In this document: positions 2,000 to 27,304 of the stretch, in pieces
Layout: each line of letters begins with the position of its first letter
Position numbering within the stretch: position 1 is the first letter of the stretch
Source: a virus
Taxonomy: Duplodnaviria > Heunggongvirae > Uroviricota > Caudoviricetes
DNA: 42,002 bases
Virus record (IMG/VR): IMGVR_UViG_2563366918_000005
Direction: 5' to 3' (one strand)
Notes under the pieces: model-generated
Told to the model about the DNA's origin: nothing
The model's input: only the letters and a program-made list of their open reading frames with translations
Databases searched by the model: none
Made by a program: the position numbers and the translations under genes

Positions 2000-2482
2000 C
2001 TATCTGGTCAGGGTGTCGTACTGTTTTTCACAGACTCTTCCGGCTTCGGCTGCCCGGTCAGCATACTCTGCCAGTTGTCTGTTTCTCTCGAGAGATTTAC
2101 TGAGCACGTCGGCAAGCAAAACTCCGGTGTCTGCGGCTGACGTCCCAGCGCCGACAATGGCGTTATACTGCCTGAGCTGCTCACGGATGGCAACGAGCTG
2201 TTGCTGCAACCGGCCAGCGCGAGCGGCAGCATCAAGAGCATCATTGCGCGCCTGGTCGATCCTCTGCTGCGCTTCACGTTCATTGATCGATTTCTCCTGT
2301 TCGTAGTGCTGACGAACTCTCTCATCTTCGGTTTTGCGGTCTTCTTTCGCCTGTGCATACCCGGCGTCGTACTGACGACTACCGTGTACATTCCAGGCAA
2401 CAACCCCTGATATGACCAGAACAGCAAGCACCGCCACGATAAGCAACTGTTTCCAGTATGCTTTTACGAATGCCCAGATCAT
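2000..2482 (-). CDS. i-spanin (Rz-like): N-terminal TM helix plus coiled coil
   Basis: 160 aa; TM segment [18 protein letters not shown] then charged coiled coil; start ATG overlaps endolysin stop (ATGA); last gene of the lysis cassette. Confidence 0.65.
2008..2244 (-). CDS. o-spanin (Rz1-like) lipoprotein, nested in the +1 frame of the Rz-like gene
   Basis: Internal start in track ORF 2008..2427 gives [13 protein letters not shown]… with lipobox LAGC; Pro/Ser-rich 78-aa product; fully embedded in the i-spanin gene. Confidence 0.6.
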   Translation of the reverse strand: MMLLMLPLALAGCSNSSLPSVSSSGSITPLSALGRQPQTPEFCLPTCSVNLSRETDNWQSMLTGQPKPEESVKNSTTP

Positions 2483-3108
2483 ACCGCCAGCACCTTACTG
2501 GCAGTGATGTACCGCGCTCTCCGGTCGTCGATGCCGTTCCTGCCACCATTGATAATCAAAGTTACACGTGCAATATCGCCGGTATACTTCATGCAACCTT
2601 TGCTGGAGAAGAACCACGCCGCGCTACGAGCCGCATATTCGTCCTGCGCTAACAGTTCAGGATTCTCCAGCAGGTCCACTTTCAGGCCGTTTCCGCAGTC
2701 ACGATAGTTATTCAAACCGGTAATCTGGATAAGTCCACGGCCTCGGTAATTCCAGCCGTCACCAGGGGAATTGTTCCCCATGCGTTTGCTGTACACCAGA
2801 TTGGCGATCGCTCGCTGGCGCTCGAGTGGCAATGGTGGTTCACCAGCACGGCGACCCAGTGCATTAGCCTGCCCCTGAGTGAGACGCCCAGCCCGAACGA
2901 AGTTAGCCAGACCGCTGACACTGTAGTTGAAATTCTCCTGCAATCTGGTGAAGCCCACAGATTCATGCCCGACCTGAGCAATAAACATTGCCAGATCTTC
3001 TGGTTTGCTGATACCAAACTCTTTCATCGCAGAAGTTATATGCGAGAACCAGCGTGCGGCCAGCGCCTCGCTAATACCAGCAGCTCGCTGGAATTGTTTA
3101 ATCTCCAT
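2479..3108 (-). CDS. Endolysin, glycoside hydrolase family 19 (chitinase-like lysozyme)
   Basis: Start at internal Met ([12 protein letters not shown]…) of track ORF 2479..3339; motif [10 protein letters not shown] typical of the GH19 catalytic region; sits between holins and spanins. Confidence 0.7.
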
Positions 3109-3406
3109 GTTTAGACCTCGATATTTTGAAAATCTGAACAACGTTACCGCGTGTTTTAATAACCGCGGCAAGCATGACAGCGTTGATAATGACCTCAGAT
3201 AAATCCACAGCCATTGGCGTGCGTAACCAGATTGCATAGACGACACGAACAGGAATACTGGCCGCAGCAACAATAAGGAAATAAGCAAGCCACCCTCCCC
3301 ATCTTCGATGTTGAGAGCCGTTACGCCGGAATGTGACAACGCGAATTGCTATGCCAGTACAAATAACTGCATTGGTGATAAGCAAAAAAAACTCATGCGT
3401 TACCAT
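3098..3406 (-). CDS. Second holin/antiholin-like small membrane protein
   Basis: 102 aa with about 3 hydrophobic helices; overlaps holin stop and endolysin start. Confidence 0.5.
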
Positions 3407-3809
3407 CGTCTTTTCTCCCCGGAATTAAATCGCGTGGATTGTCTGAACGGTGGTAGAGCCATATACCAATACGCACAGCGACAATTGCTGACACGAATGC
3501 GCCAGCAGAGAAAACAATACCTTTTTCAAAAGAGTCCTGCGTGATGGTAGGGATCAGGCTGGCTATGCCGATAAGAATTGATGCTGCTGGTTTGTAGAAA
3601 AGAAGTCCGCAGAGAAAGCTGAGCATCGACAAGAGTACGCGACGACGAATTGGATACTCTACCGCAGAGGTAACAAAAATTACCGCGCCAGCAAGAGCAC
3701 CGAGCGCCACCTCTGGCGGAACGCCTACGATAACCGCAGCAAGAGAGCTCACACTAAGCCATTGATTTAAAGACTCAGTTGTTATGTTAACCGACATAGC
3801 ACACACCAT
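3393..3809 (-). CDS. Holin
   Basis: 138 aa with 3-4 TM helices and charged C-terminus; possible dual-start motif M-V-C-A-M; first gene of the lysis cassette. Confidence 0.6.
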   Translation of the reverse strand: MVCAMSVNITTESLNQWLSVSSLAAVIVGVPPEVALGALAGAVIFVTSAVEYPIRRRVLLSMLSFLCGLLFYKPAASILIGIASLIPTITQDSFEKGIVFSAGAFVSAIVAVRIGIWLYHRSDNPRDLIPGRKDDGNA

Positions 3810-3972
3810 TTTTTTTGTACATATCGAACCTCTTCACTTACAGATCACCACACACAACAAACCATATATGTTTAACCATCAGATATTCTGAAATAACTAT
3901 CAATTCATTGGTTTTTGATGACAATATTCATAAACAACCATAAATGTAAGGCGGTTTATTAGTTGCCAAAAT

Positions 3973-6579
3973 TTATTTCCTGCAAACTCCAGATGATGTT
4001 AATCCATCAAAAATAACCTGCACTCTGGCAATAACAACATCAACTCCAGAAGTCGTTTCACTTGCATAACCAAGTTTTATTTTAGATACAATATCCTGAG
4101 TAAGTTCAGATATTTCAGTTTCTGCAATGTTACCAGAGGCCATGTGATTATCGTATGCCATAGAATGAATTCCATTATTGACATCGATTGAACTAGTATG
4201 TTTGTGAAAAATAGATGGGTTTACCTGAAACGAATTTGAACCGATAAGATCAGAATATACTCCATTCATCACTGCAGTACAGCGTGGAATATTATTATCG
4301 GTTATTGTCATATGCAGACGGTTACCAGTTAACCCCTCACCAAGTGTGACATAATACGCCAATTCTCCACCTGCATATTGTTTCCCCTCAACAATAACAG
4401 TAATCCCTCTTAATTTCTGATTAGCTAGCAAAAACTTATTACTGTCTATATAGCATTTATTTGCGGAACCAAAAACAGCCCCTTCTAAAATATCTGATGA
4501 ATAGGAATAAATAAGGTCACCTGAAACAAAGGAAAGAATATCAGATACGTTTCCTTTTTTAGATAAGTTAGGAGAATAGCTATTAACTATTTCATATTGT
4601 CCTGTGATAAAATCAAGGTAAACGCCATCAGTTTTCATCTCTTTAAAGAAAATGCTATTAAAGCATCCATCAAGAACCGGTGGATATATTCTAGAGCTTG
4701 CATAAGCTGTTGGGTGATTCTTATTATTACCACTACCAGGCGAATAAACATCTTCGTTAGTCATTGACTTTTTAAGCTTAACAGGAATCATCGGCTGCAT
4801 ATCAATTTTGCAGTTCCCTGAACCACCGATGCGAGGATAAAATAAACCACCAAACCTTACAATATTACTACTGAATAGTATTTCGTTATCGTTAAGTGTT
4901 ATCTCAACGAAGTTTCCAATAAGTTTAAATTCAACTGAAAACAAACCAAGTGGAGCAGATAATTTAACAATATTGCGCATAAAAACACCTACAGTCCCTG
5001 TTGATGCAGTATAGTGTGTGGTTTCAAAGGCAGAGCCTGTATATTTCAAGTTAATGAAATTATTATGGTATGAAGACAATTGAAATTGAATCCCAGAACT
5101 AAGGATTTCAATATCTACAAATTGAATCCTTACGGAGTAAGCATATGATAAATCTTCATATTCATAAGGCAATGTAACATCTTTTGAAATAGTTGCCCTC
5201 ACATAATTACCAGAAACCACATCAATCCCATCACGTACAGCATTAAAGTAACGATTAAAATCAATAAGCCCAGCGCCAACATACTGCGCATATGACCGAG
5301 TCCATCCTGCCATTGCGTTTCGTCCATTCTGAGCTTCTAAACTGCTAAATTCAGAGTCACTTGTGGTACTTGATGGGAGGATATTTGTACAAAAAATAAT
5401 TTCAGGCATTGAAGTAATATCATTCAGTTCAGCCATCAATTTAAAAAAAGTTTTCTGCGGGAAGTTACCAACATCCCAACCATCTCCGTCATTCATGCCA
5501 AAAGCAATAATAACAACATCAGGGTTAATATCACGAATGTAATCAATCCAGCGTCTGTTCGTGTCTGAATACCATGGGTACTGTGAGTTATAAGAAGTAA
5601 TTGCTGGTGTATCTTTTCCAAGGTCATAGTACCTCATTCCACCAATTGCTCTGTTAAATAAAGTAGAACTTGGGAATTTCTCTTGCAAAACTCTCTTAAG
5701 ATGAGCGGCAAAAATGCTTGATCGATCCACTGTGCTTATATTATATGGGGCACTTAAGCTGTCACCAACTAACACTATTTTTGAGTTAGGCCTTGATAAT
5801 CTCTCAAGTGTTTTAGATGTGACTAAACTGCAGGAATTAATGAACTGAGTACTATTTAGCATCTGTTCAAGTGTATCACCAAATCTGGTACCAACGTATG
5901 ATGATCCGTTGACACTTGCTAGCTTAAGGCATAAATCAGCAGTATCTGTAATTGAAAAAATAGGAACAGGACGTCCTAAACTGTCATACCCCTGAATTGA
6001 GTTTGCCCTAGAAGATGCTGATGCCATTTCGCTTACTATCTCAGGGAAGCGGAGTGTTTTAGATATGTTGCTGTTAATAACTCCTTTGATAGATGAGTCT
6101 GTATATTTCTTCGTGGAAGCGTCCTGAGGAAATAATGGATCATCAAGGTTACGAATACGATTGCCGAGTGCATCGTAGTAAGTGGCACTAAATGATGGTT
6201 TACGAAGAGCCAGCCGAGCCATGCTTTTGACTAACTGGATCAGCATCGTTAGCTTATCAAAAGCATCCTCATGCACTTCCGCAAAGAACTTACCCTGATT
6301 GCGCAGATCAGTTTCCTGTGTAACCGGTAGCTCTCGTGATATAGAAATCTTATAGCCATTGGCCAACGCCTTCGACAATATTACATTTCCACCATTGTAT
6401 CCTCCGGCCCCGGTAACTATATAATCAGTATCAAGAGTCAGTACGGTGATATTTTCATGAATATCAACAACCTGCACAATCAAATCAGATTTATTGAAAA
6501 CCCTAAAGGCATACGGAAACGATGTCGTAACGCCGTTACCGGTGTATTCGTTGTGGTCAACTTCGGTTGAGACCGTCAT
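3973..6579 (-). CDS. Tailspike/tail fibre protein with central SGNH (GDSL) esterase-like domain
   Basis: 868 aa; RBS GGAG 7 nt before ATG 6579; N-terminal motif YTGNGVTTSFPYAF; central KIVLVGDSLSAPYN and VIIAFGMNDGDG blocks of SGNH hydrolases; C-terminal Ser/Asn/Gly-rich region; distal two thirds look AT-rich. Confidence 0.7.
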   Translation of the reverse strand: MTVSTEVDHNEYTGNGVTTSFPYAFRVFNKSDLIVQVVDIHENITVLTLDTDYIVTGAGGYNGGNVILSKALANGYKISISRELPVTQETDLRNQGKFFAEVHEDAFDKLTMLIQLVKSMARLALRKPSFSATYYDALGNRIRNLDDPLFPQDASTKKYTDSSIKGVINSNISKTLRFPEIVSEMASASSRANSIQGYDSLGRPVPIFSITDTADLCLKLASVNGSSYVGTRFGDTLEQMLNSTQFINSCSLVTSKTLERLSRPNSKIVLVGDSLSAPYNISTVDRSSIFAAHLKRVLQEKFPSSTLFNRAIGGMRYYDLGKDTPAITSYNSQYPWYSDTNRRWIDYIRDINPDVVIIAFGMNDGDGWDVGNFPQKTFFKLMAELNDITSMPEIIFCTNILPSSTTSDSEFSSLEAQNGRNAMAGWTRSYAQYVGAGLIDFNRYFNAVRDGIDVVSGNYVRATISKDVTLPYEYEDLSYAYSVRIQFVDIEILSSGIQFQLSSYHNNFINLKYTGSAFETTHYTASTGTVGVFMRNIVKLSAPLGLFSVEFKLIGNFVEITLNDNEILFSSNIVRFGGLFYPRIGGSGNCKIDMQPMIPVKLKKSMTNEDVYSPGSGNNKNHPTAYASSRIYPPVLDGCFNSIFFKEMKTDGVYLDFITGQYEIVNSYSPNLSKKGNVSDILSFVSGDLIYSYSSDILEGAVFGSANKCYIDSNKFLLANQKLRGITVIVEGKQYAGGELAYYVTLGEGLTGNRLHMTITDNNIPRCTAVMNGVYSDLIGSNSFQVNPSIFHKHTSSIDVNNGIHSMAYDNHMASGNIAETEISELTQDIVSKIKLGYASETTSGVDVVIARVQVIFDGLTSSGVCRK

Positions 6580-6682
6580 GTTAAATCTCCAGATAGTCGC
6601 AGCACCCGTTGCGCCGCATATCTGGTTATTCTATTACCTGAAAAACCATATATGTATAGAAAGACTATAAATACCAATAGAT

Positions 6683-6699
6683 ATTACCTTTATGGTAAT
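6683..6699. promoter_or_regulatory. Operator palindrome ATTACCTTTATGGTAAT
   Basis: Perfect 6-5-6 inverted repeat in the divergent tailspike / ant-like intergenic region. Confidence 0.5.
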
Positions 6700-6735
6700 T
6701 TGCAAAACGTGCTGGATAGCAAACAAATTATTTGA

Positions 6736-6755: not shown

Positions 6756-6774
6756 ATTGCATGGAGAAGATAAG

Positions 6775-7032
6775 ATGCAGCGGTATCACTATCCACTGGA
6801 AGACGGATTTACCGAAAGGATTCACACGCCGGGAGGCGTCAGGTCACTGGTGGAGGGATCGCACTTGATGAAATTACTCCGGGATCTCGATAAGGATGGA
6901 TTTAATGTCGATGGCCCACTTGCCGAACTGACTGCACTGATTAACTACGTCACCAGCTCACAGATGTCTATGCGGGATCTGCAAACACATCTCGACTATT
7001 GTGCCGAACAATTACGAAAACAAACCAGATAA
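6775..7032 (+). CDS. Small antirepressor-like protein (standalone homolog of Ant C-terminal domain); SOS-controlled candidate
   Basis: 85 aa from ATG 6775; aligns by eye with the C-terminus of the 7347..8039 product (HTPGGVRSLVEGSHLMKLL…LRDLQTH versus HSPSGVLGLTENSLLMNLL…LRDIQTH); preceded by the LexA box. Confidence 0.6.
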   Translation: MQRYHYPLEDGFTERIHTPGGVRSLVEGSHLMKLLRDLDKDGFNVDGPLAELTALINYVTSSQMSMRDLQTHLDYCAEQLRKQTR

Positions 7033-7062
7033 GGTTTGCAATTACCAAGTGGAGTGCTTATA

Positions 7063-7079
7063 TTTACCTTTGAGGTAAA
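7063..7079. promoter_or_regulatory. Operator palindrome TTTACCTTTGAGGTAAA
   Basis: Perfect inverted repeat of the same family, between the two ant-like genes. Confidence 0.45.
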
Positions 7080-7171
7080 TTTACATCGCACTCCTCTTGT
7101 GCCATAGTAATCGGGCACTGGCAAAATCCAGTGCCGGGATTGGTCTCCCGGATTACTACAGAGGCACATAT

Positions 7172-7192
7172 GCCGCATAAGCGGTTTTTTTT
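7172..7192 (+). terminator. Putative rho-independent terminator
   Basis: CCGC-ATAA-GCGG stem followed by a T8 run; a further hairpin lies at about 7112-7144. Confidence 0.4.
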
Positions 7193-7346
7193 ATGTGTAA
7201 AGCGCACCTATTCTATGGTGGGCTGTGTGGGGGCACCGAAAGGTGCGCCGGGTTCCTTTGTAGCCGGTAAGACCAACTCTGCACAGTTCACCACCATCTG
7301 ATTGGTCTCAGCGGTGGTGATTAACCTAACTACAAAGGTGATCGCC

Positions 7347-8039
7347 ATGAATACCAAACCTTCCATCTTTTCCTTTGAGTCATCCTGCCAGATCCGTATG
7401 TTCATGATTGACGGAGAACCTTGGTTTGTCACCAAAGATGTGTGCAATGCTTTGAATATTGATGTTACACAAGCGAGAAAACTTGATAAAAAAGGCTGGA
7501 ACAAAAAGGGGCTGTATTCAATACAGACCCCTGGTGGAATACAAGAACTATCCATCGTTTCAGAATCAGGTCTCTACATCCTTATTCTGCGTTGCAAAGA
7601 GGCAATGACTGAGGGAACGAGAGCATTCAGATTTCTTGAATGGGTTACAGGCGAGGTTCTTCCTCAGATCCGCCGCACCGGAAGTTACATTAAAAACTCG
7701 CTACCGCAGGAAGAACGCATAAAGATGGTTGCCGACCAGGTAGCCAACGCCACGGCGTCAGCAGTAATGCAGGCGATGAAGATAGAGAACAAAACCTACA
7801 ACGCCCCGCTGAAGCCCGGCTACCGCAGCCTGATTCATTCCCCGTCTGGTGTTCTCGGCCTGACGGAGAACTCACTGCTGATGAATCTGCTGAACCAGTT
7901 ACAGGAAGACGGGCACGACGTATCGGGCGCGGCGGCGGAGCTGACCACCATGTTCTGCTACATCGTCGGTGTGAGCAAATGCCTGCGTGATATCCAGACG
8001 CACGCGGAGTACATCAACGACAAAGCAGGGTTCTTCTGA
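7347..8039 (+). CDS. Antirepressor (N-terminal BRO-N domain, C-terminal Ant/KilAC domain)
   Basis: RBS GGTGA 5 nt before ATG 7347; N-terminus FSFESSCQIRMFMIDGEPWFVTKDVCNALNI matches the BRO-N pattern; C-terminal domain paralogous to 6775..7032. Confidence 0.7.
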   Translation: MNTKPSIFSFESSCQIRMFMIDGEPWFVTKDVCNALNIDVTQARKLDKKGWNKKGLYSIQTPGGIQELSIVSESGLYILILRCKEAMTEGTRAFRFLEWVTGEVLPQIRRTGSYIKNSLPQEERIKMVADQVANATASAVMQAMKIENKTYNAPLKPGYRSLIHSPSGVLGLTENSLLMNLLNQLQEDGHDVSGAAAELTTMFCYIVGVSKCLRDIQTHAEYINDKAGFF

Positions 8040-8103
8040 CGGGCGGCGGCACAGGGATGTGCCTTTAAATAATTCTGTACAGATTGCAGGTGAATAGCTT
8101 ACT

Positions 8104-8120
8104 ATTACCTCACGGGTGAT
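8104..8120. promoter_or_regulatory. Operator-like imperfect palindrome ATTACCTCACGGGTGAT
   Basis: Left half perfect, right half GGTGAT; lies upstream of the mini-ORF and the 8249 gene. Confidence 0.3.
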
Positions 8121-8156
8121 CCATAGCGATTAGGCACCGATACAGGAGGAGCCCAC

Positions 8157-8189
8157 ATGAGAAAATTTGACGAGTACGAAGGCGTTTAA
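8157..8189 (+). other. 10-codon mini-ORF (MRKFDEYEGV) with strong SD; leader-peptide candidate
   Basis: AGGAGG at 8144-8149, 7 nt before ATG 8157; stop at 8187-8189; followed by the hairpin at 8208-8231. Confidence 0.3.
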
Positions 8190-8207
8190 CATTCGGATAG
8201 TTTAATG

Positions 8208-8231
8208 ACGGGGCCATTAGGCCCCGTTTTC
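8208..8231 (+). terminator. Rho-independent terminator / attenuator hairpin
   Basis: ACGGGGCC-ATTA-GGCCCCGT stem followed by TTTT. Confidence 0.55.
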
Positions 8232-8248
8232 ATGTCTGGAGACAGTTT

Positions 8249-8788
8249 GTGTTAAGTGAAGAAATGCAATTTGCCATGGCTGTGGCTCAAATCGTAAGTG
8301 CAGTCGCGGTTTCGCTTGGCTTGTTCATAGCTATCGCTACTATTATTTATAATGTAAATACAGCGAGAAAAGTACACACTTCAGTATTCCTTGGTGAAAG
8401 CAGGTTTGATGTAGATTATAAGAAAGGCCTATCTACTATGCGCCGCATTCACGAATCGAACAAATCATTCCGCTCTTATATGTATCCAAGCAATGGGCAG
8501 GCTGATCTTACGGATGAAGAAAAGACAGAGAAGAGAGAAATAATTTACTGTCTAGGTTTCTACGAACGCATGGCTGTGAGCGTGAAGCGGAAAACTTATG
8601 ATGAGACCATGATTAAGGAAGTATTTTACAGCTCCGTTGTAAATAACTATCAGATTGCGCTACCTCTTATACAAGCCATTAGAGAAAAAGAAAACATAAA
8701 CACATATTTTAAAGAATATGAATGGTTGGCCACACGATGGAAGGATTGCCCATTGAAGGATAAATCCCCGTGGTACAAGTTTTGGTAA
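8249..8788 (+). CDS. Hypothetical membrane-anchored protein (AT-rich accessory gene; exclusion/defence candidate)
   Basis: RBS GGAGA 6 nt before GTG 8249 (alternative ATG 8264); N-terminal TM helix AVAQIVSAVAVSLGLFIAIATIIY then about 140-aa soluble domain; visibly AT-rich; followed by a terminator-like T-run at about 8789-8811. Confidence 0.55.
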   Translation: MLSEEMQFAMAVAQIVSAVAVSLGLFIAIATIIYNVNTARKVHTSVFLGESRFDVDYKKGLSTMRRIHESNKSFRSYMYPSNGQADLTDEEKTEKREIIYCLGFYERMAVSVKRKTYDETMIKEVFYSSVVNNYQIALPLIQAIREKENINTYFKEYEWLATRWKDCPLKDKSPWYKFW

Positions 8789-8882
8789 GCCAGCGCTGCG
8801 GGCTTTTTTTGTGGACGAAACAAAAGTCAGTGCTACACTCATTGACGCCACATTGAGGTGGCTTATAGATGGAAATTTCACA

Positions 8883-9044
8883 ATGAAAAAAGCATTTGCT
8901 GCACTGTTCGTTTTGTTGTCTCTGGTAGCTTCAACTCAGGCTTTTGCCGGTCGTTGTCAGCACGACAGCGATACTGCCGCTGACGGCTCCCGCTGCGGTG
9001 GGCGTTCTGCGGATTCCCGCCCGGGTGGCGGTGGCATTCGTTAA
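8883..9044 (+). CDS. Small secreted Cys-containing peptide (hypothetical)
   Basis: Internal start of track ORF 8811..9044: MKKAFAALFVLLSLVASTQAFA then a 31-aa Gly/Arg/Asp-rich region with 2 Cys; weak RBS. Confidence 0.3.
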   Translation: MKKAFAALFVLLSLVASTQAFAGRCQHDSDTAADGSRCGGRSADSRPGGGGIR

Positions 9045-9046
9045 AA

Positions 9047-9066
9047 ACAAGGCCGCGAAAGCGGCC
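9047..9066 (-). terminator. Terminator at end of late virion operon (between convergent units)
   Basis: GGCCGC-GAAA-GCGGCC hairpin with T-run on the minus strand. Confidence 0.5.
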
Positions 9067-9075
9067 TGTGACATG

Positions 9076-9372
9076 TCACGTCCCTTTTCTGAATGATAGC
9101 CATTCGAAAAATGATGACATTCCACCGCAGACAACAGCAAAGATGATCCCACCAAAGAAGAGAATGCCAGCCTGCCACCACTCCCACCGCCATACATCCA
9201 CAGCGCCAACCATACCAACAATCGCTCCAACAAATGGAATATAGCTCACGATGAAAGCAATGGGGGCTGCAATTATCCAGTGCAATCCCCACCATGATTC
9301 AAGCCCAGCCATAATTGCTGCCAACTGAAAAAGACCAACGACGATATAAACAATGAATCCTATAGCTTGCAT
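9076..9372 (-). CDS. Small Trp-rich integral membrane protein
   Basis: 98 aa, 3 hydrophobic helices; RBS AGGTGA before ATG 9372; stop codon sits inside palindrome GTGACATGTCAC. Confidence 0.55.
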   Translation of the reverse strand: MQAIGFIVYIVVGLFQLAAIMAGLESWWGLHWIIAAPIAFIVSYIPFVGAIVGMVGAVDVWRWEWWQAGILFFGGIIFAVVCGGMSSFFEWLSFRKGT

Positions 9373-27055: not shown

Positions 27056-27249
27056 CCAACGCCATTCATGGCCATATCAATGATTTTCTGGTGCGTACCG
27101 GGTTGAGAAGCGGTGTAAGTGAACTGCAGTTGCCATGTTTTACGGCAGTGAGAGCAGAGATAGCGCTGATGTCCGGCGGTGCTTTTGCCGTTACGCACCA
27201 CCCCGTCAGTAGCTGAACAGGAGGGACAGCTGATAGAAACAGAAGCCAC
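26974..27249 (-). CDS. insA: IS1 InsA
   Basis: 91 aa, [42 protein letters not shown]… matches IS1 InsA. Confidence 0.85.
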
Positions 27250-27304
27250 TGGAGCACCTCAAAAACACCATCATACACTAAATCAGTAAGTTGGCAGCAT
27301 CACC

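Follow-up and report, generated by a model that had tools for sequence, protein, structure and literature searches.

A predicted SGNH-esterase tailspike of mosaic origin in an epsilon15-like prophage of Escherichia coli

The window, a stretch of 42,002 nucleotides of tailed-virus (Caudoviricetes) DNA, carries on its minus strand a single open reading frame (3973..6579) that begins with an ATG, has a GGAG Shine–Dalgarno sequence about 8 nt 5′ of that codon and codes for a protein of 868 residues. This protein is 100% identical to WP_001546907.1, encoded in NZ_AP022222.1, whose RefSeq label is already “SGNH/GDSL hydrolase family protein”, and PHROG 17220 covers it over its full length. The gene and the parts that we recognize in it, from the 5′ end of the coding sequence onwards, are:

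3973..6579, minus strand: whole tailspike gene, 868 aa plus stop (open reading frame list and translation)
5878..6579, minus strand: virion-binding (adaptor) domain of the epsilon15 gp20 type, aa 1–234 (BLASTP, phrog_1640, PDB 28lx)
5980..5985, no strand: compositional junction, the GC3 change point after codon 199, at about nt 5982
5200..5817, minus strand: first part of the SGNH esterase domain, aa 255–460, with blocks I, II and III
5752..5766, minus strand: block I, GDSLS, aa 272–276, with Ser274 as predicted nucleophile (aligned with TesA GDSLS; coordinates checked by translation)
5638..5655, minus strand: block II, NRAIGG, aa 309–314, with Gly314 as predicted oxyanion-hole glycine (aligned with TesA NASISG)
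5488..5499, minus strand: block III, GMND, aa 361–364, with Asn363 as predicted oxyanion-hole asparagine (aligned with TesA GGND)
4777..5199, minus strand: nested ConA-like/LamG-like beta-sandwich, aa ~461–601, an insert that separates SGNH blocks III and V
4645..4776, minus strand: second part of the SGNH esterase domain, aa 602–645, with block V and the last helix (AF2, PF00657, Possum gp66 alignment)
4711..4731, minus strand: block V, GNNKNHP, aa 617–623, with His622 as predicted general base (coordinates checked)
4000..4632, minus strand: C-terminal ConA-like beta-sandwich, aa ~650–860, a putative carbohydrate-binding domain (AF2, fold matches)

Positions 1–26536 of the window are 99.996% identical to NZ_AP022222.1, in whose annotation the gene is followed directly by those for holin, endolysin and Rz, and the prophage sits beside guaA. 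Upstream of the tailspike gene are tail and injection genes, with an accessory block on the opposite strand (6757–9372) intervening; PADLOC returned nothing convincing for the accessory genes neighbouring the tailspike, and when the surroundings of the spike gene were searched for an acetyltransferase or a seroconversion gene belonging to the prophage, none was found. The gene would belong to a temperate podovirus of the epsilon15 kind whose prophage lies between E. coli yfgI and guaA. Two lineage alleles of it differ at 10 codons, 5 of them synonymously and 5 not, and neither is interrupted by a stop, in keeping with a gene that is intact and maintained. We also considered an exchange with a virulent phage, given that the last 320 nt of the gene match the 138-kb Vequintavirus BP9 at 99.7%, and rejected it: the BP9 record contains an entire attP-spanning epsilon15-like fragment, running from the integrase to Rz, endolysin and holins and then to the truncated 3′ end of the tailspike gene, and since this fragment adjoins an IS2 gene, the match points to a chimeric assembly or to IS-mediated capture.

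The N-terminal 234 residues are 67% identical, over 234 aa in BLASTP, to the tailspike of Salmonella phage VB_ST_E15; phrog_1640 (“tail protein”) matches residues 1–254 with E 1e-120, and PDB 28lx, Dpo31, matches residues 1–164 with E 6e-24. A single-sequence PDB search with the whole protein returned relatives of this adaptor only and no SGNH enzyme. In possessing an N-terminal domain homologous to residues 1–247 of gp20, the protein is of the epsilon15 tailspike type. At the nucleotide level, homology to other epsilon15-like tailspike genes covers the first 345–435 nt only. The proposal in the initial annotation that this is a tailspike or receptor-binding protein is thus borne out, both by the adaptor identity and by the slot, which has tail genes on one side and the lysis cassette on the other; the conserved adaptor fixing the spike to the tail would be made up of residues 1 to about 234.

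Beyond the adaptor, the translation contains VLVGDSLSAP and IIAFGMNDGDGW, with GMNDGDG at residues 361–367, so that the GDSL-type blocks from which an esterase had first been suspected are present as described. Pfam Lipase_GDSL_2 (PF13472) matches residues 271–447 (E 2.4e-9; 38.4 bits against a curated cut-off of 32.9), and G272, D273, S274, G361, M362, N363 and D364 are invariant in 33 of 33 aligned homologues; with a score above the cut-off and invariant residues, the GDSLS and GMND motifs go beyond chance. In block II, N309 and G314 are likewise invariant and G313 is found in 31 of the 33 aligned sequences, while H622 and N621 are kept in all 31 full-length homologues, within a GNxxNHP motif immediately ahead of the last helix. 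Ser274, Gly314, Asn363 and His622 are hence conserved across all full-length homologues, and the block I Ser, block II Gly, block III Asn and block V His of the SGNH superfamily are all in place, including the catalytic Ser and His on which the esterase proposal hung. The acid of the DxxH triad is not: position 619, three residues before His622, is Asn here, and among the 31 full-length sequences it is G in 24 homologues and D in 5. This Asp is not universal in the SGNH superfamily, some of whose esterases, such as those of carbohydrate esterase family 2, work with a Ser–His dyad.

With the nested insert removed, the PF13472 score rises to 42.6 bits and PF00657 reaches 29.9 bits (cut-off 23.6), its coverage extending to profile position 203 of 208; the block V segment moreover aligns with GGNGINHPSAQGIARIVTPVL of the Possum gp66 protein considered below. 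A full-length family profile was set aside, being dominated by the Tail_spike_N segment of the homologues, and for that reason an insert-free profile (A2) was built, which retrieves both the acetyl-xylan esterase 7ddy and, at E 1.3e-4, the GDSL-like lipase 3p94, in alignments that end before block V. An hhalign comparison with E. coli TesA covers blocks I–III only at a probability of 28%, which is weak and serves as a check of register. Because these profile alignments stop short of block V, the assignment of His622 as the predicted general base rests on its conservation, the context of its motif, the PF00657 coverage and the alignment with Possum gp66.

The AF2 model, a monomer built on a shallow alignment of 33 sequences, is confident over residues 220–860 and displays the three-layer alpha/beta/alpha flavodoxin-like fold of the SGNH superfamily; with the Pfam family match above its cut-off, the earlier suggestion of an SGNH fold stands. 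Residues 613–624, which include block V, form a loop that leads into the helix 625–641. The C-terminal sandwich is all-beta in the model (pLDDT 85–95) and its fold matches include galectin, LamG and CBM40; no Pfam family matches it, and it is seen in only about 9 related 50%-identity clusters, as against more than 100 for the esterase core. The native spike is presumably a trimer. Neither Pfam nor fold searches found a beta-helix or a glycosidase fold or family in the protein, and hence the earlier preference for an esterase rather than a glycosidase is supported.

The base composition of the gene bears the mark of a mosaic origin. Its GC content is 0.376 as against 0.486 for the window, and of all 2-kb stretches in the window the one beginning at 3751 has the lowest GC (0.354; mean 0.486, sd 0.034). 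The best change point in GC3 falls after codon 199, with 0.422 on its 5′ side and 0.262 on its 3′ side, a likelihood ratio that was reached in 3 of 2000 permutations. GC is thus uniform neither along the gene nor along the window. The earlier picture of a GC-normal N-terminus followed by an AT-rich remainder holds at third positions, where the 5′ part agrees with the neighbouring tail genes (GC3 0.41–0.46), although its total GC, at 0.41–0.45, lies slightly under the window mean. In other phages homologous modules are found on adaptors of the T7, P2 tail-collar and Tail_spike_N types, and because the same module sits on these unrelated N-terminal adaptors, swapping of host-range modules is well supported by the sequence comparisons. 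The idea of a swapped module, which the initial annotation had drawn from composition, is strengthened both by this and by the confinement of homology with epsilon15-like tailspikes to the 5′ end of the gene.

The closest characterized relative of the module is gp66 of the Pectobacterium phage Possum (Cbunavirus, Schitoviridae), a tail fibre or spike which was shown by NMR to strip the 2-O-acetyl group of rhamnose from the O-polysaccharide of its host (PMC9569702). It is 27% identical to the tailspike over 430 columns (BLASTP E 2e-34; tblastn E 2e-25; Foldseek E 2.5e-28, TM 0.40), and the homology spans blocks I–III, the nested sandwich and block V. Both proteins have the same order of blocks, a sandwich between blocks III and V and an Asp-less GNxxNHP, and Possum gp66, like the tailspike, is a virion receptor-binding protein devoid of a depolymerase domain. 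Its host belongs to another genus, its substrate is 2-O-acetyl-rhamnose, and it differs in its adaptor, which is of the Tail_spike_N type and attaches via a connector protein in an N4-like virulent phage, as well as in its C-terminus, a tip resembling that of a Listeria-phage receptor-binding protein (aa 825–925 according to its authors; PMC9569702) where the tailspike has a ConA-like sandwich. By analogy, the tailspike would remove acetyl groups from a host polysaccharide without depolymerizing it.

The relationship to gp20 of the Salmonella phage epsilon15 is of a different kind: virion-binding domain (67%, aa 1–234), genomic slot and phage type are common to the two, whereas the main body of the 1070-aa gp20, a beta-helix endorhamnosidase with a beta-sandwich, is absent from the tailspike, the adaptor being shared and the enzymatic body not. 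The gp20 protein has an SGNH “petal” with a nested beta subdomain that deacetylates O-antigen galactose (bioRxiv 10.64898/2026.07.31.742079). However, past residue 234 we found no significant similarity of the tailspike to gp20, the best segment in the SGNH petal having E 0.066; the beta-barrel of gp20 (residues 826–906) interrupts the chain between blocks II and III, unlike the insert between blocks III and V of the tailspike; and gp20 has a canonical Asp1035-x-x-His1038 where the tailspike has Asn619. Another esterase tailspike, gp63.1 of the Escherichia phage G7C (PDB 4QNL), deacetylates the E. coli 4s O antigen; it has another adaptor and comes from another, N4-like, type of phage, no sequence similarity of the tailspike esterase domain to it is detectable, and the family profile reaches 4qnl only via the Tail_spike_N segment, which the tailspike lacks. 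In structure G7C gp63.1 is less similar to the tailspike than are the bacterial SGNH carbohydrate esterases to which a further, carbohydrate-binding domain is joined (Ape1, 8GLD/4K3U; CEX, 6HFZ), which are 14–16% identical and are cellular enzymes, whereas the tailspike is by homology a virion protein. Finally, the prophages of Klebsiella pneumoniae encode receptor-binding proteins that carry an SGNH esterase where a beta-helix depolymerase is classically found, and for which deacetylation was proposed as an alternative to depolymerization; they are associated with capsule loci and two of them hydrolyse pNP-acetate (PMC13123978). The likeness of the tailspike to these temperate-phage proteins is by description, an esterase standing in place of a depolymerase in both.

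We accordingly place at about 0.8 the probability that the product of the gene is an epsilon15-like prophage tailspike in which a gp20-type adaptor is joined to an exchangeable SGNH carbohydrate-esterase module with two sandwiches. The host-range module would be built around the esterase, whose nucleophile would be Ser274 and whose base His622, the oxyanion hole being formed by Gly314 and Asn363; one lectin-like beta-sandwich would be nested inside the esterase fold and the second would make up the C-terminus. The sandwiches may bind a polysaccharide of the host surface, from which the esterase would take O-acetyl groups, leaving the chain uncut, and this deacetylation would let the virion bind productively and move down to the outer membrane, as for Possum gp66 and G7C gp63.1. 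On the analogy of these proteins, the most likely function of an SGNH esterase in place of the usual sugar-cutting domain is to strip acetyl groups from a surface polysaccharide.

As to the polysaccharide, the initial annotation had suggested a deacetylase acting on, for example, O antigen; the homology to the proven deacetylase Possum gp66 upholds the first part of this, but O antigen as the substrate is not established, because near-identical alleles occur in O15, O102 and other hosts. Specific de-O-acetylation of the host O antigen is a serious if tentative candidate: G7C gp63.1, Possum gp66 and the epsilon15 petal all act on O antigens (PMC13123978; PMC9569702; bioRxiv 10.64898/2026.07.31.742079), and carriage is concentrated in two O types, the 37 E. 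coli genomes with near-identical alleles comprising 9 of 100 O15 genomes, 24 of 107 O102 genomes (one of these carriers being labelled O102:H6) and 4 of the remaining 5219. Yet the O15 and O102 gene clusters are unrelated, with an L-FucNAc pathway in one and rhamnose and GalNAc-type initiation in the other, and neither includes an annotated O-acetyltransferase; an O15 strain (AP022222) shares with an O102 strain (B19429) an allele identical over 1401 nt; 4 carriers have neither O type; and the enrichment by O type may come simply from clonal descent in a small number of phylogroup-D lineages.

Alternatively, the substrate may be a capsule (K antigen) bearing O-acetyl groups or some other glycan than O antigen, such as colanic acid or the enterobacterial common antigen; this would account for one allele across several O types, and we regard it as a nearly as likely, and likewise tentative, candidate. 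Both carrier capsule loci that were inspected encode an O-acetyltransferase, namely a group-3 locus with an AlgX-related acetyltransferase (9 of 37 carriers vs 46 of 5426 genomes) and a group-2 locus with a CatB-related one (9 of 37 vs 49 of 5426), and the SGNH receptor-binding proteins of Klebsiella prophages, two of them active esterases, are tied to capsule type (PMC13123978). Against this, one capsule locus is unrelated to the other, roughly half of the carriers lack both and no K type unites them, many genomes with either locus lack the tailspike, and lineage confounds the association just as it does for the O types. An attempt to derive a single substrate from the O and K glycotypes of the hosts was likewise given up, with no uniting type and with lineage confounding remaining.

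A bolder view, which we consider unlikely, is that the spike is not O-serotype-specific at all, its esterase and two lectin-like domains recognizing an acetylated glycan, for instance a capsule, colanic acid or enterobacterial common antigen, that E. coli of types O15, O102 and others have in common. Were this so, an epsilon15-like temperate phage would have a host range that is not bounded by O type, and the spike would point to a widespread, uncharacterized receptor-binding module with an Asp-less Ser–His SGNH core and a nested carbohydrate-binding domain.

The missing triad Asp (N619; G in 24 of 31 homologues) and the presence of two lectin-like domains might also be taken to mean that the SGNH domain is catalytically dead and the spike a pure adhesin that uses its sandwiches. 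This we hold to be improbable: Ser, Gly, Asn and His are strictly kept among relatives 27–47% identical, a constancy that one would not expect of an inactive site, and the Asp-less block V is compatible with activity because the active Possum gp66 has Gly, not Asp, three residues before its His. That the protein is no virion component but an enzyme of lysogenic conversion or of the cell wall, such as a lipase or a peptidoglycan O-acetylesterase resembling Ape1, is barely credible, given the 234-residue epsilon15 gp20 virion-binding domain, the tailspike slot of the gene and the homologous modules on T7-type, P2 tail-collar and Tail_spike_N adaptors.

Esterase tailspikes are already known among phages, and this gene is an added, ordinary example. 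Nevertheless, receptor-binding proteins with an esterase are increasingly recognized in temperate phages as a common substitute for depolymerases, and they matter for host-range prediction, the design of phage therapy and the serotype-independent spread of prophages. With Possum gp66 as a proven but distant comparator, the tailspike offers a tractable example in E. coli, and its allele is found in multidrug-resistant lineages of clinical importance, O102 accounting for 24 of the 37 carriers. The occurrence of one such spike in hosts with differing O and K loci poses a concrete, testable puzzle: what do such esterases recognize?

The tailspike gene lies in a stretch of the E. coli chromosome that runs from the yfgH and yfgI side towards guaA and contains an epsilon15-like (Uetakevirus-type) prophage; window positions 1-26536 are 99.996% identical to the O15 strain WP8-S17-ESBL-12 (NZ_AP022222.1). 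The following features are discussed here:

1219-1728: IS200C-type tnpA, between yfgI and the lysis-gene end of the prophage
3973-6579, minus strand: tailspike, a single ORF of 868 aa with an ATG start
6757-9372, mostly on the opposite strand: small accessory genes between the tail genes and the tailspike
25974-26050: tRNA-Arg of the prophage, between the portal region and the IS1-split hypothetical gene (coordinates transferred from the NZ_AP022222.1 annotation)
26537-27303: IS1 element, with InsA (26974-27249, minus strand) and InsB (26552-27055, minus strand)

A ribosome-binding site (GGAG) is found ~8 nt upstream of the tailspike ATG, and both motifs quoted in the initial annotation are present in the translated ORF: VLVGDSLSAP, with GDSLS at aa 272-276, and IIAFGMNDGDGW, with GMND at aa 361-364. 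In NZ_AP022222.1 the product is listed as WP_001546907.1, which RefSeq calls an "SGNH/GDSL hydrolase family protein"; PHROG 17220, listed as of unknown function, covers its full length. Directly downstream are genes for two holins, a GH19 endolysin and an Rz-like protein, and the large tail and injection genes lie upstream, with the accessory block in between. This position, between the tail/injection genes and the lysis genes, identifies the tailspike slot.

The accessory block codes for an 85-91 aa hypothetical protein, a BRO-N protein, a DUF4760 protein and further hypothetical proteins, and yielded no hits with PADLOC. In the O102-lineage lysogen NZ_CP163448.1 (stretch L014, 7697-8522), a hypothetical gene and one for a YafO-family toxin take the place of the DUF4760 gene, with flanks ~98.5% identical; the IS200C-type tnpA is absent from the matching junction of this lysogen. 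The IS1 element splits a gene for a 272-aa hypothetical protein, which has the large terminase on one side and the prophage tRNA-Arg and portal genes on the other; the prophage of NZ_AP022222.1, otherwise 99.8-100% identical, lacks this element. A related fragment is found in the 138-kb Vequintavirus GenBank record of Escherichia phage BP9 (PP488543.1):

L002 (stretch of PP488543.1), 2454-6713: epsilon15-like fragment spanning attP

Its genes lead from the integrase past Rz, endolysin and holins into the tailspike gene, of which the last 320 nt are included (99.7% identical), and it stops beside an IS2 insA gene, shortly ahead of rIIB. The record is probably a chimeric assembly, or else an excised prophage was captured by way of an IS element.

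The esterase domain of the tailspike is real. Pfam Lipase_GDSL_2 (PF13472) matches aa 271-447 with E 2.4e-9 and 38.4 bits (gathering cut-off 32.9 bits), and a search of 5.8 billion proteins recovered 37 relatives of aa 226-868, those at 35-47% identity covering 93-98% of the query and all displaying PF13472. Invariant across all 33 aligned sequences are G272, D273 and S274 of block I, N309 and G314 of block II, and G361, M362, N363 and D364 of block III; N621 and H622 of block V are present in 31/31 full-length sequences. The SGNH-esterase-like domain proposed from the sequence is thus borne out by the PF13472 score and the block residues, and its contrast with a glycosidase also holds, in that the searches of the tailspike turned up neither a beta-helix nor a glycosidase, whether as family or as fold.

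The Lipase_GDSL_2 match ends at profile position 155 of 178, ahead of the His block. An AlphaFold2 model built from the relatives' alignment is confident over aa 220-860 and poor over aa 1-212, where the alignment lacks depth. It explains the early stop: beyond block III and the helices after it, the chain departs from the esterase fold into an all-beta domain (aa ~461-601, pLDDT mostly 87-95), re-entering at aa 602-645 as a short loop and final helix with the "SGNNKNHPT" motif. In-silico deletion of aa 460-601 raises the PF00657 score from 23.3 to 29.9 bits (cut-off 23.6 bits) and extends the match from profile positions 1-100 to positions 1-203 of 208. Hence, the esterase is interrupted by another domain, which is nested between its blocks III and V, an anatomy that is unusual but not unprecedented.

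The closest experimentally characterised relative is gp66 of the Pectobacterium phage Possum (27% identity over 430 columns, E 2e-34), with the alignment extending from block I through blocks II and III and the nested sandwich to block V ("GGNGINHPS" in gp66). By sequence, the window protein is a homologue of the esterase core of gp66, which in recombinant form removes the 2-O-acetyl of rhamnose from the host O-polysaccharide, leaving the chain intact, as seen by NMR (Lukianova et al., PMC9569702). Position -3 from His622, Asp in the canonical DxxH, is Asn619 in the window protein, Gly in 24 homologues and Asp in only 5, which taken alone would point to a possibly dead enzyme. Most of this doubt is settled by gp66, an NMR-proven deacetylase that likewise has Gly at -3. 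Moreover, Ser, Gly, Asn and His are strictly conserved throughout the family, which argues for an active enzyme, with predicted catalysis probably via a Ser-His dyad.

Receptor-binding proteins with esterase domains form an established class: G7C gp63.1 deacetylates the O antigen, and in the receptor-binding proteins of Klebsiella prophages SGNH ranks among the commonest enzymatic domains, two of these proteins having been shown to be active esterases (PMC13123978). The epsilon15 tailspike, gp20, deacetylates galactose with an SGNH "petal" in addition to its endorhamnosidase activity (bioRxiv 10.64898/2026.07.31.742079). The window protein falls outside the gp63.1 sequence family, and the gp20 petal, whose inserted beta-barrel lies between blocks II and III and whose Asp-x-x-His is canonical, belongs to another SGNH lineage; the adaptor is the sole part common to gp20 and the window protein. 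The window protein probably works like gp63.1, gp66, the epsilon15 petal and the Klebsiella SGNH proteins. The existing generic annotation of the gene is correct, and the protein type is already known.

The adaptor (aa 1-234) is 67% identical to the tailspike N-terminus of the epsilon15-type Salmonella phage VB_ST_E15, which, with the gene's location, upholds its description as a tailspike; protein comparison revealed no similarity to gp20 past aa 234. In epsilon15, gp20 up to residue 247 is a flexible phage-binding domain (bioRxiv 10.64898/2026.07.31.742079). DNA matches in other epsilon15-like phages and in 494 of 5426 complete E. coli genomes are confined to the first 345-435 nt, at ~78-89% identity; the remaining ~1.9 kb is found in just 37 of the 5426 genomes, never below 99.4% identity. 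In the 494 genomes the sole matching part is the 5' adaptor-coding end (window 6145-6579), mostly at 80-90% identity, so spikes of the epsilon15 type that bear other receptor-binding modules are common in E. coli; one such spike, P0016, is a 46%-identical esterase paralogue of the same architecture.

Conversely, the esterase module of relatives is joined to quite different adaptors, among them Tail_spike_N (PF18668), the P2-type tail collar (PF12571) and the T7 tail-fibre N-terminus (PF03906). Isolated phages that carry the module are likewise unrelated: Escherichia phage anhysbys (149 kb), a T7-like Kayfunavirus and N4-like Pectobacterium phages. When 1.84 billion cluster representatives were searched exhaustively with HMMER, 492 clusters proved related at E <= 1e-3, with 286 of them reaching E <= 1e-10 and 42 reaching E <= 1e-30; about nine span the whole module and >100 the esterase and nested sandwich only (query 30-405, aa ~265-640). 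Composition agrees with a mosaic tailspike: the gene has a GC of 0.376 (window 0.486) and contains the lowest-GC 2-kb stretch of the window, and GC3, which at 0.422 initially matches the neighbouring tail genes, falls to 0.262 after codon 199 (a signal reached by only 3/2000 permutations), slightly upstream of the end of adaptor homology. Together, the adaptor-only DNA homology, the module's presence on other adaptors and the GC3 drop lend good support to the swapped host-range module and uneven base composition originally noted.

As the predicted substrate we commit to an acetylated surface polysaccharide. Typing by wzy assigned 24 of the 37 carrier genomes to O102 and 9 to O15, with 4 belonging to neither. 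One allele is identical over 1401 nt between the O15 strain AP022222 and the O102 strain B19429; the O-antigen gene clusters of the two types share no pathway, and neither contains an annotated O-acetyltransferase. The O antigen is thus a tentative candidate, and the weak point of an initial annotation whose observation is confirmed and whose interpretation is otherwise supported. The alternative of a capsule or another glycan is about as tentative, and capsule typing points no more clearly to one substrate; capsule loci with O-acetyltransferases, exemplified below, are present in a part of the carriers:

L008, 1-17236, and L009, 14107-23092 (stretches of NZ_AP022222.1): group-3 type capsule locus; region 2 has rhamnose genes and an AlgX-related O-acetyltransferase
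L012, 39536-47477, and L013, 1339-7317 (stretches of NZ_CP163448.1): group-2 type capsule locus at pheV; region 2 codes only for a 1114-aa HAD-family multidomain protein and a CatB-related O-acetyltransferase

The group-3 locus with the AlgX-related enzyme is found in 9 carriers, with a variant in one more, and the group-2 locus with the CatB-related enzyme in another 9; the remaining carriers have neither. The two differing capsule loci of the carrier strains are at pheV. Both O types and both capsule types are strongly enriched in carriers relative to the species, an enrichment that may stem from inheritance within a few phylogroup-D lineages. Two alleles compared directly, one from the O15 lineage and one from the O102 lineage, are both intact and differ at only 10 codons (5 synonymous, 5 not), all within aa 240-775.
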